A stretch of 20,800 bases of DNA from a virus. Taxonomy: Duplodnaviria; Heunggongvirae; Uroviricota; Caudoviricetes. The notes under the pieces were generated by a model that saw only the letters and a program-made list of their open reading frames with translations, was not told the origin of the DNA and did not search any database. Shown here in pieces: positions 16,036-20,800 of the stretch. Within the stretch, counting starts at the first letter, position 1, and each line of letters opens with the position of its first letter. The DNA lies in IMG/VR virus record IMGVR_UViG_3300033146_000394, positions 64,001-84,800 of that record, one strand, 5' to 3'. A program made the translations under genes and the position numbers.

Positions 16036-17260
16036 ATAATAATCTTTTAACATGAGATGTAAATACTCCATTATCATCACGAGTATAAGATACTTTATCT
16101 AAATACATCAAATCAAAATCATCTATTGAAAAAAATTCATCTAATTTTAATTTTTGTGATATATTTTGGTTTTTAGATATTCTAACTAAATCATTTAAAT
16201 CAATTATATTTTTTAAATAAAATTGTGCTTTTTGTTTATTCTTTTTTTGTAATTTTAAAAATAATTTATTCCATAAAAATACACCATATCCATCTTTTAA
16301 CATTTTAGTTGCTATTGAAATCCCAGCAGCATCATTATCATAAAAGAACCTCAAAATAATATCTTCACTAGCTTCAAGTAACGATAAAACATCATTTGTT
16401 GAATTAGCACCAATTAATCCAATCGAATTTGGAAAAAATAATGAATCAATAAAACCTTCAAATACCGACACTACTTTTTCAAAATCAACATTTAGAATAT
16501 TATACATATGAGATAATTTATTATATGCAATAGCTTCTTGTTCATCTAATGGTTCTTCTGGGTGCATATAATTATATAATTCTTCAAATTCAACAATTTT
16601 ATAAAAACGTTTACTTTTATCATCAACTAGATTTCTTAATTGAATACCAAGTATTTTATTCATACTTAAAGACATATTTAATGAAATCATAACTCTTGTT
16701 TCAAATACGTTTTTACCCTCTTTAAATACTCTATAAACTCCTTGTAATATCATTTTTGTCTTAGGTATATATCTTTCAAGATATAAATATTGTCCAACAT
16801 GTGAATTTGGTTCAACTATTTTAATATCGACCAACCAAGAATTTTTTCTATTATTAAAGTATTCCATAAAATCATCAACATCAATTAATTTATCCATCTC
16901 TTCCATAATATAATCATTATTATTATTAGTGAAAGATATATTTTCATCAATATATTTATATAGATTTATTTTCTCATTTAAATCTATTTTCTCATTGAAA
17001 TTGTCACATAATTCTGTAAATGATATTCTAGTATCACAATTAAAACATACGTATTTTGCATTTTTAAAATAAAAATTTCCTCTTTTTTTATGTCGCCCAT
17101 TCCATTTACTTGAATCCCCACAAATTGGACACGCACAATTAAACCTATCACTGAAAGGAACTATCTTCTTTTTTTCTGGTTCAGTGTGTGTTTTATCTAA
17201 AATTTTTTGTAACTTAGATTTTATATATTCTTTATTTAATTCTGTTTTTTGTTCTGACAT
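16034..17260 (-). CDS. DNA primase, T4 gp61-like
   Basis: Zn-binding RFNCACPICGDS...KKRG...YVCFNC; TOPRIM VFEGFIDSLF and FFYDND..G; C-terminal DLND. Confidence 0.88.
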   Translation of the reverse strand: MSEQKTELNKEYIKSKLQKILDKTHTEPEKKKIVPFSDRFNCACPICGDSSKWNGRHKKRGNFYFKNAKYVCFNCDTRISFTELCDNFNEKIDLNEKINLYKYIDENISFTNNNNDYIMEEMDKLIDVDDFMEYFNNRKNSWLVDIKIVEPNSHVGQYLYLERYIPKTKMILQGVYRVFKEGKNVFETRVMISLNMSLSMNKILGIQLRNLVDDKSKRFYKIVEFEELYNYMHPEEPLDEQEAIAYNKLSHMYNILNVDFEKVVSVFEGFIDSLFFPNSIGLIGANSTNDVLSLLEASEDIILRFFYDNDAAGISIATKMLKDGYGVFLWNKLFLKLQKKNKQKAQFYLKNIIDLNDLVRISKNQNISQKLKLDEFFSIDDFDLMYLDKVSYTRDDNGVFTSHVKRLL

Positions 17261-17333
17261 ATTTATTATATGATAAAAATATTAAATTGTTTTAATATAA
17301 ACTTTTTATTTTTATGTATATATAAGTGTCTCT

Positions 17334-17418
17334 GCTCGAATGGTGGAATTGGTAGACACGTTGGACTTAAAATCCAATGACTATTGCAGTCGTGCGGGTT
17401 CAAGTCCCGCTTCGAGTA
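17334..17418 (+). tRNA. trnL: tRNA-Leu (UAA)
   Basis: Acceptor gctcgaa/ttcgagt, D arm gtggaattggtagacac, anticodon arm ttgga-ctTAAaa-tccaa, long variable arm, T loop ttcaagt, A73; CCA not encoded. Confidence 0.95.
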
Positions 17419-17430
17419 CAAATATTAAAA

Positions 17431-18732
17431 TTATGATTTCCACGAAAGAGGAATACTATTATAATTTAGTGTATTATTACAACCATAGAAACAACTATAA
17501 TAAATAGATGGGGTGTGAGTATTCCATAAATCAGGAACATCTGTGGATATTGAAGAATCTCGTGCAAATGTTCTTGAAAAATCATCAACAATAGTATTAT
17601 AATAAAATAATGAATTTGGTATATTTACTAATGCTATACAACTTTTAAATGTGGCATTAAACGATTCAACCAAAGTATTATTATTAAATATATTATCTGG
17701 TATAGATAATAATGATTCACACATATTAAATGTTTCTTTAAATGATGTGACAGCACTATTATTATCAAATAAGCCACTTGGGATACTTGTTATATCAGTC
17801 TTATCAAAAATACCCTCAAATGATGTGACAGCACTATTATTATCAAATAAGCCACTTGGAATACTTGTTATTTCTGTATTTTTGAATGTGTCTATAAATG
17901 TTTCTACTTTTATATTATTATCAAATAATCCACTTGGTATGTTAGTTATCCCACCATGATTAATAACTGAGAATGTGGACATAAATGTTTCTGCGTTAAT
18001 ATTATTATCAAATAGACCACTTGGAATATTCGTAAGATTTTCGTTCCATGCAAATGTACCAACAAAATTTGTTGCATTAATATTATTATCAAATAATCCA
18101 CTTGGGATATTTGATATATTTGTTTGTATAAATACGTGTGAAAAATTTGTTGCATTAATATTATTATCAAATAGACCACTTGGAATATTGGTTATATCTG
18201 ATGCTGCAAATACTTTATAAAAACTTGTAACTAATGGACTATTACTAAATATATTACTTGGTATTGTGTTTAATTTAGAATAACTAAAAGTACTTATAAA
18301 GTCTGTAATTTTTTCTAAACCAGTATTATCTAAAGGGATTTCATTTAATACATCACTTGCTATTTTTATTCTCTTTAAATTTGAAATGTCTGATATTCCC
18401 CACGATAGTACTTTATAAATATGTTTTCTTGAATAAAATTCAAAATCTAATGATTCAATTTCCCCATATATTTTTAAATTATATGATCCAATATCATAAT
18501 GATGAGTTATACTATTACCACTACCAATTTGTGTAGTTTGTGTTGATGTTCCATCACCCCATGAAAATTCTGCTTTATATTCATACCCAGTTCCCAATAA
18601 AACCGAAAAATCCATAGGGTTATCAAAAATTAACCTCAGTGATATATAACTACTTTTATTAATTTTAAATGTATTTATTCTATTTCCGTTTATAGATATA
18701 CTTCTATCTGTATTTTGTATTTTTAATCCCAT
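17431..18732 (-). CDS. PKD-like domain plus BspA/DUF285-type leucine-rich repeat protein
   Basis: FSWGDGT...ITHHY..GSYNLKIYG (PKD-like), then about 9 repeats of (N/S)IPS(G/N)LFDNN....(N/S/T)F...F, period about 26 aa. Confidence 0.75.
   Translation of the reverse strand: MGLKIQNTDRSISINGNRINTFKINKSSYISLRLIFDNPMDFSVLLGTGYEYKAEFSWGDGTSTQTTQIGSGNSITHHYDIGSYNLKIYGEIESLDFEFYSRKHIYKVLSWGISDISNLKRIKIASDVLNEIPLDNTGLEKITDFISTFSYSKLNTIPSNIFSNSPLVTSFYKVFAASDITNIPSGLFDNNINATNFSHVFIQTNISNIPSGLFDNNINATNFVGTFAWNENLTNIPSGLFDNNINAETFMSTFSVINHGGITNIPSGLFDNNIKVETFIDTFKNTEITSIPSGLFDNNSAVTSFEGIFDKTDITSIPSGLFDNNSAVTSFKETFNMCESLLSIPDNIFNNNTLVESFNATFKSCIALVNIPNSLFYYNTIVDDFSRTFARDSSISTDVPDLWNTHTPSIYYSCFYGCNNTLNYNSIPLSWKS
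17740..18173 (-). repeat. 78-bp-period tandem coding repeats in the LRR gene
   Basis: 42-nt identity at 17740-17781 and 17818-17859; 32-nt identity at 18064-18095 and 18142-18173. Confidence 0.9.
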
Positions 18733-18803
18733 GTGATGATATATTTTTTTTTTAAACTTTTGAAATTTTTTTAAGCTATTATATATAAATTAATAAAACC
18801 ATA

Positions 18804-19697
18804 ATGAAAGTAATAGATAAAATAAAACAAATACATGAAGATTTTAATTCATATGTTAAACAGTCTAATAAAAAAATAATAAAACGCACTAAAATAAGTG
18901 ATATTGAAGATGTATCATTTTTAAAAAATATTGGGTTTACTAATTCTACACCAGTAATAAAATACTGAAAAAATAATTAAAAAAGAAAATCATAAAAACA
19001 CAAAGATAAAAAATGATAATTTATCTTTATTAAAAGCAAAAGAATATTATATTAAATATGGTTTACCGTGTGTATCTCAAGATATGGTAGAAAAAATATT
19101 AAATAAATATAATTTGGTTATGGTGGGGTAGAAGATTATGTTGGAGATATACCAAAGAAAAATATTAATGATTTAAAAAAATTCAAAGGAATAAATGATG
19201 AAGATATACCGTACTCTATTCATGTGGATGAAGAATTGAGTGAAGATGAATATTTTATTAATTATATGAAATATTTTGATCAATATAATTTATTGGGTTT
19301 ATTACCATTTAATGTAGAATATGATGAAAATAGTGAAAAATATAAAATCATATCAAAAAATATCAAAAGATTTATTGATAAAAAATCAGTAGATAAGCTA
19401 ATTATATCTAAAGCCACAAATTTAAGAATTGTTTGTCCAATAACAGATATAAAAATATACAACCATACTGATAGGTTACATAGTATTATACCATTTGAAG
19501 CAGCAAGAGTTTACGCAGAAGATATTTTAGATCCAATAGTTTTATTACCAATAAAAGGTCCAAAAAGATATAATATAAATGGGAATCAAGAATATTATAA
19601 TACTCCAATGTATTTAGTGTTAACAATGTGGGGGTTAGAAAGCTTTGATTGTGTTCTTAACCCAGATGGTATTGCAAAAATTAATATTTTAAATTAA
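18804..19697 (+). pseudogene. Hypothetical phage gene interrupted by two compensating 1-nt frameshifts (or sequencing indels); about 297 aa when repaired
   Basis: ATG 18804 frame ends at TGA 18966; the +1 frame continues (NTEKIIKKE...AKEYYIKYGLPCVSQDMVEKILNKYNLV) to TAG 19129; the original frame resumes (YGGVEDYVGDIPKKNI...) and runs into annotated ORF 19224..19697 (DPIVLLPI...YLVLTMWGLES). Confidence 0.7.
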
Positions 19698-19787
19698 AAA
19701 AAATAAAAAATATAATTAAAGAAGAAAGAATAGTAAATGTAATTTACCCATATGGTGATTATGATTTATTGACAACCAGTATCATAT

Positions 19788-20114
19788 GTGTTTTTTGAGT
19801 TTCAAAAACAATTAGATAATCTTGAAAACGATAAGCAAAGAATTATCATTGATATGTTTCAGCGAGTATTTGAGTCTATAAAAATAATTAATGGTAATAT
19901 ATCAATGGAACACAATGGATTAATAGAAGAATTATCCTTAATGGTAAGTGCAACAAATTTTAATGAAGATATGTTGAATTATATAATCAATATTAAAATT
20001 AATAAAGACTCACTGTTATATACTTATGATGAAAAAATAGACATTAGAAGAGTTAAACAACATTTAAAAATAAAAATAATTGAAAAATATTTAAAAAATA
20101 TATTAATATATTAA
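19788..20114 (+). CDS. Hypothetical protein (GTG start uncertain)
   Basis: 108 aa with AT-rich codon usage; the true 5' end may lie upstream across another indel near 19770. Confidence 0.55.
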   Translation: MFFEFQKQLDNLENDKQRIIIDMFQRVFESIKIINGNISMEHNGLIEELSLMVSATNFNEDMLNYIINIKINKDSLLYTYDEKIDIRRVKQHLKIKIIEKYLKNILIY

Positions 20115-20213
20115 AACTTTTTATTATCTTTACACTATAATATAAATTAGAAAAAGAAAAAATAGAAAAAAACGACTTTTTTTAATAAATATATATAAAA
20201 GTTCAAAAGATAT

Positions 20214-20241
20214 AAAACTTTTACTTATCTTTGCACTATAA
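20214..20241 (+). promoter_or_regulatory. Bacteroidota-type sigma-A promoter for the tRNA operon (TAnnTTTG at 20226-20233); near-copy at 20113-20140
   Basis: tatctttg matches the established Bacteroidota -7 consensus; the 28-nt block is repeated 101 nt upstream with 25/28 identity; no clear -33 TTTG. Confidence 0.65.
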
Positions 20242-20270
20242 TAAAAACAACAATTAAATAAATAGAAATA

Positions 20271-20363
20271 ATGAAAAACACAATTAAACATATTAGCATT
20301 TTTAGTCATAAGTGGTCGAGCTTTATCTCGTTTCGCAATGGACTTGGAATATCTGATAGTTAA
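20271..20363 (+). CDS. Attenuator leader peptide, 30 aa (MKNTIKHISIFSHKWSSFISFRNGLGISDS)
   Basis: ATG 20271 to TAA 20361-20363; A-rich upstream with A at -3; consecutive TGG TCG AGC at 20313-20321; 7 Ser and 1 Trp; lies between the promoter and the terminator. Confidence 0.75.
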   Translation: MKNTIKHISIFSHKWSSFISFRNGLGISDS

Positions 20364-20432
20364 ATTGTATTATAAATATAACTAAAACTAAAATGAAAAC
20401 CTCCAAGTTTATTAAAACTTGGAGGTTTTTTT
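20304..20432 (+). promoter_or_regulatory. Ribosome-dependent transcription attenuator (1:2, 2:3 and 3:4 helices)
   Basis: Antiterminator 20337-20348 (aatggacttgga) pairs over 12 contiguous bp (2 G-U) with 20402-20413 (tccaagtttatt); imperfect protector hairpin 20304-20320 with 20327-20344. Confidence 0.7.
20396..20432 (+). terminator. Rho-independent terminator immediately upstream of tRNA-Trp
   Basis: 15-bp stem aaaacctccaagttt/aaacttggaggtttt, loop atta, 7-T tract at 20426-20432. Confidence 0.92.
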
Positions 20433-20436
20433 ATAT

Positions 20437-20517
20437 ACGTAAGTTGCCGAGTGGACAAAGGTGCTGGATTCCAAACCCAGTCCGAAAGGTTCGTGGGTTC
20501 GAATCCTACCTTACGTG
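20437..20517 (+). tRNA. trnW: tRNA-Trp (CCA) with an atypical 12-nt variable arm
   Basis: Acceptor acgtaag/cttacgt plus G73; anticodon arm ctgga-ttCCAaa-cccag (A31-C39 mismatch); variable region tccgaaaggttc; T arm gtggg-ttcgaat-cctac. Confidence 0.85.
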
Positions 20518-20529
20518 CTAACAAAGAAT

Positions 20530-20614
20530 GGAGGATTGGCAGAGTGGTCGATTGTGATAGTCTTGAAAACTATTGATGGTAACACATCCGAGAGTTCGAA
20601 TCTCTCATCCTCCT
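20530..20614 (+). tRNA. trnS: tRNA-Ser (UGA), canonical 7/5 fold
   Basis: Acceptor ggaggat/atcctcc, anticodon arm atagt-ctTGAaa-actat, long variable arm, T arm gagag-ttcgaat-ctctc; discriminator is U. Confidence 0.93.
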
Positions 20615-20619
20615 CAAAT

Positions 20620-20712
20620 GGAAAGTGAAGCAGCAGCATTGGAGCAGCGACTAGTCTTGAAAACTAGGTGTCGGATTTATTTCTGACTGGGGGTCGGGTC
20701 CTCCTCTTTCCG
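20620..20712 (+). tRNA. trnS: tRNA-Ser (UGA) with non-canonical 8/4 acceptor/T-stem fold
   Basis: 8-bp acceptor ggaaagtg/ctctttcc (one U-U), 4-bp T stem gggg/cctc with loop gtcgggt, anticodon arm ctagt-ctTGAaa-actag, 6-bp variable stem gtcgga/tctgac, G73. Confidence 0.8.
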
Positions 20713-20723
20713 CAATAACAACT

Positions 20724-20800
20724 GGAGAGTTGTCAGAGTTGGTTTATTGTGCTACCCTGCTAAGGTAGTGTGGGTTACACCACCGAGAGTTCGAATCTCT
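20724..20800 (+). tRNA. trnS: tRNA-Ser (GCU), truncated by the window end
   Basis: 5' ggagagt, anticodon arm ctacc-ctGCTaa-ggtag, long variable arm, T arm gagag-ttcgaat-ctct. Confidence 0.9.

Follow-up and report, generated by a model that had tools for sequence, protein, structure and literature searches.

At the 3′ end of a 20,800-nucleotide (nt) stretch of viral DNA (hereafter, the window), a short leader open reading frame (ORF) and an intrinsic terminator lie directly in front of a series of transfer RNA (tRNA) genes, and this arrangement, a candidate leader-peptide attenuator of tRNA transcription, is the subject of the analysis presented here. The window is the terminal 20.8 kb of a virus contig that spans 84.8 kb and has a G+C content of 22.9% (positions 64,001 to 84,800 of IMG/VR record IMGVR_UViG_3300033146_000394).

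The leader, the terminator and the tRNA genes

The components of the locus, with the RNA segments numbered as is usual for attenuators, are the following:

20125..20132, + strand: upstream promoter-like −7 box TATCTTTA, with one mismatch to TAnnTTTG
20226..20233, + strand: −7 box TATCTTTG (consensus TAnnTTTG), of the Bacteroidota sigma-A type, 37 nt 5′ of the leader ATG
20271 (ATG)..20363 (TAA), + strand: leader ORF of 30 codons plus stop, from the ORF map
20280..20311, + strand: segment 1, 5′ strand of the predicted 1:2 hairpin (anti-antiterminator), from folding; a ribosome stalled at codons 15-17 would cover it
20313..20321, + strand: control codons TGG-TCG-AGC in a row (codons 15-17), the final cognate codons in the zone where a stall permits the antiterminator
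20337..20348, + strand: segment 2, antiterminator 5′ strand, which pairs with segment 1 or with 20402-20413
20395..20432, + strand: intrinsic terminator (segments 3:4) with a 7-U run, −20.8 kcal/mol
20402..20413, + strand: antiterminator 3′ strand, that is, the terminator 5′ arm and loop, from folding
20437..20518, + strand: tRNA-Trp(CCA), called by ARAGORN and Rfam
20530..20615, + strand: tRNA-Ser(UGA), called by ARAGORN and Rfam
20620..20711, + strand: non-canonical tRNA-like gene with anticodon UGA (Rfam tRNA-Sec model, 28.7 bits, below the 47-bit cut-off)
20724..20800, + strand: tRNA-Ser(GCU), called by Rfam and cut by the contig end inside the T arm

The promoter box, the 30-codon leader, the terminator and the first tRNA, which begins at 20437, 4 nt past the terminator, are all found where a first-pass annotation, made by a model that saw only the letters and an ORF list, had placed them. 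As leader-peptide attenuators demand, a short ORF sits between the promoter box and the tRNAs; a spacer of 31 nt separates it from the terminator, and the locus is contiguous from the promoter through the ORF and the terminator to the tRNAs, which leaves no space for a promoter between terminator and tRNA. Leader and tRNAs are probably transcribed together from the box at 20226-20233. TAnnTTTG is the −7 element of Bacteroidota sigma-A promoters, and such boxes recur across the contig; a scan for sigma-70-type promoters stayed at background level, with a model that is uninformative for this host. The near copy at 20125-20132 belongs to a tandem duplication of about 100 nt of the promoter region, and an A7-CGAC-T7 inverted repeat sits between the duplicated copies. 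The 5′ untranslated region (UTR) of the leader is A-rich, unstructured and without a Shine-Dalgarno sequence.

The leader contains 7 Ser, 1 Trp, 5 Ile, 3 Lys, 2 His and 3 Phe codons. Ser takes up 7 of 29 leader codons, versus 6.8% in the long ORFs of the phage (64 ORFs, used as codon background; P=0.003), and four of these seven codons are TCG or AGC, which together account for only 4.8% of the Ser codons genome-wide (TCG 3.1%, AGC 1.8%; P=1.7e-4). Both the consecutive TGG-TCG-AGC, followed by a second TCG at 20328, and the rarity of TCG and AGC had been pointed out in the first-pass annotation, and both hold. The combined Ser and Trp content of the leader is reached by only 3 of the 292 short ORFs of the contig, and 8 of 29 leader codons are cognate to the tRNAs visible in the window.

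With regard to these tRNAs, the Trp(CCA), Ser(UGA) and Ser(GCU) genes listed at first were recovered, while the supposed second Ser(UGA) is to be considered non-canonical, since it matches only the tRNA-Sec model, below its cut-off. This gene (20620-20711), which ARAGORN does not call, is similar to selenocysteine tRNAs or to allo-tRNAs, whose cloverleaf is unusual. The tRNA(CCA) carries the Trp identity marks A1-U72 and G73 but has a class II-like D arm, together with a long variable region, some 12 nt in length, that folds into a small hairpin. The contig end falls inside tRNA-Ser(GCU), within a T-arm sequence that is repeated from tRNA-Ser(UGA).

The terminator stem (20395-20430) comprises 16 pairs including its A-U and G-U ends, 5 of them G-C, with a loop of 4 nt and a U run that extends to 20432. 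It had been proposed that segment 2 either pairs over 12 bp with 20402-20413 or is held in an upstream 1:2 hairpin, and folding predicts both states. The 12-bp pairing (2:3, the antiterminator; −14.0 kcal/mol), which is mutually exclusive with the terminator, is the minimum-energy fold when the terminator 3′ arm and segment 1 are left out, and the upstream part has the 1:2 hairpin (20280-20368) as its minimum-energy structure. The whole leader folds into this hairpin plus the terminator, at −44.4 kcal/mol (z=−6.1).

The effect of a ribosome was simulated by barring its 30-nt footprint from pairing while the transcript was folded as far as the terminator loop. When no ribosome is present, the 1:2 hairpin forms and the antiterminator is absent. 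With the A site at any of codons 2-18, TGG-TCG-AGC included, the full 12-bp antiterminator is obtained; at codons 19-20 it is partial, and from codon 21 to the stop it is absent. Consequently, the permissive zone closes with Trp15-Ser16-Ser17-Phe18. These masked folds reproduce the logic of trp/his-type attenuators that the first-pass annotation had ascribed to the locus, and 20 more units of this kind were found in four huge phages.

Codon-matched units in related huge phages

The primase of the window's phage is 37-39% identical to the primases of LR756501-4 and LR745206, ‘uncultured phage’ genomes of 630-735 kb, and 27% identical to those of Lak phages. On first inspection of LR756502, a cassette formed by a promoter, a mini-ORF and a terminator before tRNAs was seen three times. 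Units were collected with a detector that requires a terminator at most 110 nt from a tRNA and an ATG ORF of at least 12 codons ending just 5′ of the terminator, and 21 of them were analysed, namely that of the window and 20 from LR756502, LR745206, LR756504 and LR756501. A homologous-looking leader of LR756501 (L048:4897-4992, − strand) and the further units found in LR756500 were kept outside the statistics. TAnnTTTG boxes are also present 5′ of many of these other units. Some leaders, given by locus handle and coordinates, are the following:

L016:2226-2279: seven Gln codons in a row, 5′ of four tRNA-Gln genes
L016:1247-1354: contains DQDQPD, 5′ of Pro and Asp tRNAs, with the Gln unit next
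L053:971-1030, − strand: rich in Ile, Met and Arg, 5′ of Arg(UCU), Ile and Met tRNAs
L054:1295-1399, − strand: rich in Ile, Ala, Val, Glu and Gly, 5′ of Glu, Ala, Ile, Val and Gly tRNAs
L002:19626-19700: rich in Ser and Arg(CGN), 5′ of Arg(ACG), Ser(UGA) and Arg(UCG)
L002:17136-17222, L038:881-976 and L048:4897-4992 (− strand): leaders before the Trp/His/Phe/Lys blocks of LR756502, LR745206 and LR756501, which by eye resemble the window leader, with a Lys-Trp core in the apical stem common to all

The comparison across phages is the strongest evidence for the putative attenuator. Over the 21 units, 198 of 580 leader residues are cognate to the tRNAs downstream, versus 77.2±12.7 when the assignments are permuted among units (0/20,000), and at the codon level, with wobble rules, the match is 168 versus 59.2±11.6. 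When the permutation is restricted to single genomes, no other assignment scores as high as the true one in LR756502 (1/720), LR745206 (1/5040) or LR756504 (1/720). Thus, the proposed correspondence between leader codons and regulated tRNAs is significant, but the claim that the codons follow the gene order does not extend to the other units generally. These statistics, empirical and by permutation, together with the exact conservation described below for a close relative, also bear on whether an AT-rich genome simply yielded a short ORF beside an ordinary terminator. A 30-codon ORF is, by itself, not rare, and the sigma-70-type scan singled out nothing above background, but against such figures we regard chance as the least credible of the explanations weighed here.

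The match depends on the reading frame, as 29.0% of the codons are cognate in the ORF frame and only 10.7% and 9.0% in the other two. Such frame specificity favours translation and counts against a nucleotide-level artefact or T-box-like sensing. In the latter case, the codon-like triplets would bind anticodons directly, without being translated, an idea in favour of which it can be said that tRNAs would be both what is regulated and what is sensed. Indeed, T-box riboswitches likewise sense the state of a specific tRNA through a terminator/antiterminator switch placed before translation-related genes. Unlike the frame-specific phage signal, bounded by an ATG and a stop codon, they are untranslated and bind uncharged tRNA directly; moreover, the leaders contain many cognate triplets and not a single specifier. 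The region 16800-20800 gave no Rfam match to a T-box stem I with its specifier loop or to the conserved T-box antiterminator sequence, nor any credible match to other cis-regulatory families (Trp_leader, His_leader, Leu_leader, Thr_leader and others). The lone cis-regulatory match was at chance level (E=0.35; 21.6 bits versus a 68-bit cut-off) and fell within the truncated tRNA but on the other strand, and the remaining matches were to tRNA models plus one chance microRNA match. Direct tRNA sensing is, accordingly, considered highly improbable, only slightly less so than chance.

The helices are also specific to each unit. The complementarity of the leaders to their own terminator 5′ arms sums to −264.9 kcal/mol, versus −177.4±10.0 kcal/mol when leaders and arms are swapped (0/50,000), and the window leader, at −14.0 kcal/mol, ranks first among the 21 leaders for its own terminator arm. 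The pairing segment is in the 3′ third of the ORF in all units, and in 19 of 21 an upstream-only fold pairs segment 2 with a more 5′ segment 1. Cognate codons concentrate where a stall would be productive: they make up 55.8% of the codons from codon 7 to 12 nt before segment 2, but 25.1% of those beyond it and 14.3% of codons 2-6 (Fisher P=1e-11).

This distribution helps in judging another reading, in which the element would be a real translation-coupled attenuator that reports general translation status or infection timing (for instance, any ribosome slowdown, host shut-off or amino-acid starvation), with the codon match merely tuning its sensitivity. The masking simulation yields the antiterminator from a stall anywhere in codons 2-18, non-cognate codons (Phe, Asn, Thr) are also present in the leaders, and amino-acid starvation would stall the ribosome as well. 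By contrast, leader composition follows the tRNA set block by block within single genomes, where the true assignment is the best permutation; cognate codons are placed specifically in the permissive zone; and a separate leader per block would be needless. A sensor of general status is, therefore, judged unlikely, even if it is the most plausible of the competing explanations.

In LR756502, LR745206 and LR756504 (L002, L016, L038-L041, L053-L060), the tRNA genes are grouped in blocks by amino acid (Gln; Pro/Asp; Glu/Tyr; Ile/Gly; His/Phe/Lys; Arg/Ser), which is consistent with block-wise control. Gaps in the Arg/Ser block of LR756502 (L002 ~19930-20000 and ~20250-20320) hold one sequence that has, by eye, the same anticodon arm as the non-canonical UGA gene of the window and another with a GGA anticodon loop. 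Unlike the sense-codon blocks, two adjoining tRNAs with a CUA anticodon (amber suppressors, which ARAGORN labels ‘Pyl’) in LR756501 (L052 1086-1239; LR756501.1 ~690585-690737) are found about 20 nt behind a TAtaTTTG box, with neither leader nor terminator.

A close relative and the genomic context

A metagenome scan with a pattern drawn from the odd tRNA(CCA) returned a 3,074-bp contig (Ga0164318_10078300; L068) that is 92.9% identical to the window over 20158-20532. The 56 nt between promoter and ATG differ by about 9 substitutions and a 14-nt indel, whereas the leader ORF is the same save for one substitution in codon 2 (K2N) and, from the third codon to the tRNA, the sole difference is a 4-nt insertion in the unpaired spacer. 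The identity from leader to terminator, despite the divergence of the 5′ UTR, reflects selective constraint on both coding sequence and structure. The tRNA(CCA) is retained (902-983) with a single change in the D stem, from G-U to G-C, and the tandem pair of promoter regions is also kept (~582-600 and ~672-690).

The array of L068 runs Trp(CCA), Ser(UGA), an HNH-like ORF, Ser(GCU), Ile(GAU), a second leader, Lys(UUU), His(GUG), Lys(UUU) and Ile(GAU), the first Lys(UUU) being called by Rfam only. The added features are:

L068:1136-1743: ORF of about 200 amino acids, HNH homing endonuclease-like by eye, inserted within the first tRNA block between Ser(UGA) and Ser(GCU), where the window has the non-canonical UGA gene
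L068:1952-2002: second leader, in which Lys, His and Phe abound; it has a terminator and an antiterminator of its own but no promoter box
L068:~2459-2509: orphan near copy of the Lys/His/Phe-rich leader ORF after the last tRNA, with no terminator or tRNA behind it

As L068 holds a full-length homologue of the truncated Ser(GCU) followed by Ile(GAU), the match can be followed beyond the end of the window: 18 of 29 codons of the window leader are cognate to the L068 array, and 10 of 12 within codons 7-18. It had been predicted from the leader that further tRNAs would match its Phe, Ile and Arg-CGC codons. Ile is indeed present in the proximal block of L068, but Phe and Arg(CGC) tRNAs were not seen; the His and Lys tRNAs lie behind what would be a second serial attenuator.

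The orphan leader copy, possibly the scar of a lost tRNA block, could also be expected if the short ORF encoded a functional micro-protein, or if the transcript acted as a small RNA, in either case with a dedicated terminator. The tRNAs would then be expressed because termination constantly leaks or because the polymerase disregards the terminator, and the agreement of codons with tRNAs would be incidental. Leader N-termini are alike (M-K/T-N/T-T/L-I...), and RNA ended at the terminator, about 190 nt long, would be a stable species. Nevertheless, beyond their N-termini the peptides are unrelated to one another and reflect the sets of tRNAs, the antiterminator complementarity is unit-specific, and no family or homologue was found for the ORFs that adjoin the leader. 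A micro-protein or small RNA is, consequently, very unlikely to be what the locus encodes, less so only by a little than direct tRNA sensing.

Upstream of the promoter region, L068 and the window differ by a strain polymorphism (window 17431-20114 versus L068 434-605), and L068 lacks the 433-amino-acid protein of the window (with a weak DUF3696 match) and two small ORFs. A tRNA-Leu(UAA) that is 100% identical to that at 17334-17420 of the window, where it has neither leader nor terminator, lies directly upstream of the promoter region of L068. IMG/VR scans with three neighbouring proteins and with a tRNA pattern returned no usable relative; a neighbouring protein of 157 amino acids had no homologue except itself among 5.8 billion proteins, and in the phage collection megablast matched nothing beyond short stretches of tRNA. 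Tail-fibre genes are present in the window. The standard genetic code suits the region, and neither table 4 nor TAG read as Gln changes the ORF map.

Attenuation model, known systems and significance

What computation shows here is the set of parts, the helices that can replace one another, the agreement of leader codons with tRNAs and the repeated occurrence of the cassette in relatives. The reading that we prefer, on these computational grounds and with a probability of roughly 0.8, is that of a codon-specific, translation-sensing leader-peptide attenuator that gates the transcription of phage tRNAs. According to this model, host RNA polymerase would start at the TAnnTTTG promoter and a ribosome would translate the 30-codon leader. 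With an ample supply of charged Trp, Ser and Ile tRNAs, the ribosome would reach codons 21 to stop and cover segment 2, the terminator at 20395-20432 would form, and transcription would end 4 nt before the first tRNA. If the leader were not translated, segment 1 would hold segment 2 and termination would likewise result. Slow decoding of the cognate codons within codons 7-18, which end with TGG-TCG-AGC, would instead leave a stalled ribosome over segment 1, so that the freed segment 2 could pair with the terminator 5′ arm and the polymerase would read into the tRNA genes. As the fresh tRNAs would relieve the stall, each tRNA block would be under negative feedback on its own decoding capacity. 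By inference, the leader would be translated, readthrough would depend on stalling, and the physiological trigger may be the loss of host tRNAs, a mismatch in codon demand or a defence nuclease.

Several observations weigh against this model. The terminator is thermodynamically stronger than the antiterminator (−20.8 vs −14.0 kcal/mol), so the switch must be kinetic, as in trp, and the upstream hairpin is only moderately unusual (z=−2.5). Not all cognate codons would help readthrough, as a stall at TCG20 leads to a partial antiterminator and stalls at TCT28 and AGT30 to none, and the rare G/C-rich codons of the leader could be there partly to build the helices. The array of L068 has no cognate tRNA for the three Phe codons and the Arg CGC codon of the leader. 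The conservation looked for in relatives was found, with leader ORF and helices kept exactly in L068, but it came without base-pair covariation in homologous helices: the window and L068 show no differences at paired positions, hence no compensatory changes, and covariation is seen only as whole-helix replacement between units. In addition, some of the 21 units are apparent counterparts (W01/W04), so they are not fully independent, and no such unit came up in Lak-B7, a phage with dispersed tRNAs, although the scan was crude and its outcome is not proof of absence.

The proposed attenuator has clear parallels in amino-acid operons. The trpL, hisL, leuL, thrL and pheL leaders of E. coli and Salmonella are also promoter-proximal mini-ORFs enriched in regulatory codons, followed by a 1:2 helix, a 2:3 antiterminator and a 3:4 terminator with a U run, and a stall there frees the antiterminator; in the multivalent ilvGMEDA and thr leaders, one leader senses several amino acids. 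Unlike these systems, the units described here are phage-encoded, have a Bacteroidota-type promoter and no Shine-Dalgarno sequence, share no sequence similarity with them, and would regulate tRNAs rather than biosynthetic enzymes, with the product closing a short feedback loop. The logic has also been applied to the decoding machinery, and not to biosynthesis, in other cases. For instance, pheST is regulated via the pheM leader, and the gene of an aminoacyl-tRNA synthetase, a hisS paralogue, is attenuated through a leader peptide (PMC2965389). In both cases, the products are protein enzymes and a single amino acid is involved, in contrast to the tRNA-gene blocks and multi-codon leaders of the phages. 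The idea of a Phe-rich leader before the E. coli tRNA-Phe genes pheU and pheV was rejected, as in MG1655 a promoter-like sequence directly precedes both tRNAs, with no leader ORF.

Phage tRNAs are known to replace depleted or cleaved host tRNAs (PMC10264068, PMC11464382), which offers the same rationale for carrying tRNAs of one's own when those of the host fail. These papers deal with tRNA function and not with a codon-matched sensor that controls transcription; in their full text, leader peptides and transcription attenuation are unmentioned. The genome-wide attenuator survey of PMC2965389 contains no occurrence of ‘tRNA gene’, ‘tRNA operon’ or ‘phage’, and a full-text literature search returned no paper that ties phage tRNAs, or any tRNA genes, to leader-peptide attenuation. 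What is proposed is, in summary, that ribosome-mediated attenuation, a known mechanism, acts in a virus and on genes of a class new to it.

It is conceivable, though we consider it doubtful, that the leaders serve as a per-block alarm, with each block being induced specifically upon the destruction or withholding of the corresponding host isoacceptors, for instance through anticodon nucleases or other defences directed at tRNAs; the first-pass annotation had proposed anticodon-nuclease defence or starvation as the trigger. If this were the case, the element would be an inducible counter-defence circuit and not a plain balancing of supply and demand, and the rare codons TCG, AGC and TGG would aim the sensor at particular host tRNAs.

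The purpose of phage tRNAs has been debated for decades, with codon compensation, the replacement of degraded host tRNAs and the escape from tRNA-cleaving defences as the main proposals. A sensor within tRNA operons would imply that the phage gauges the decoding speed of the codons that each block serves and produces tRNAs on demand, and the question would become testable with simple reporters. The leader would also predict the tRNAs behind it, which may be useful for fragmented metagenomic contigs, and such units may offer compact, codon-specific, translation-sensing switches for Bacteroidota. More generally, classical attenuation would be extended from enzymes to tRNA genes and to viruses.

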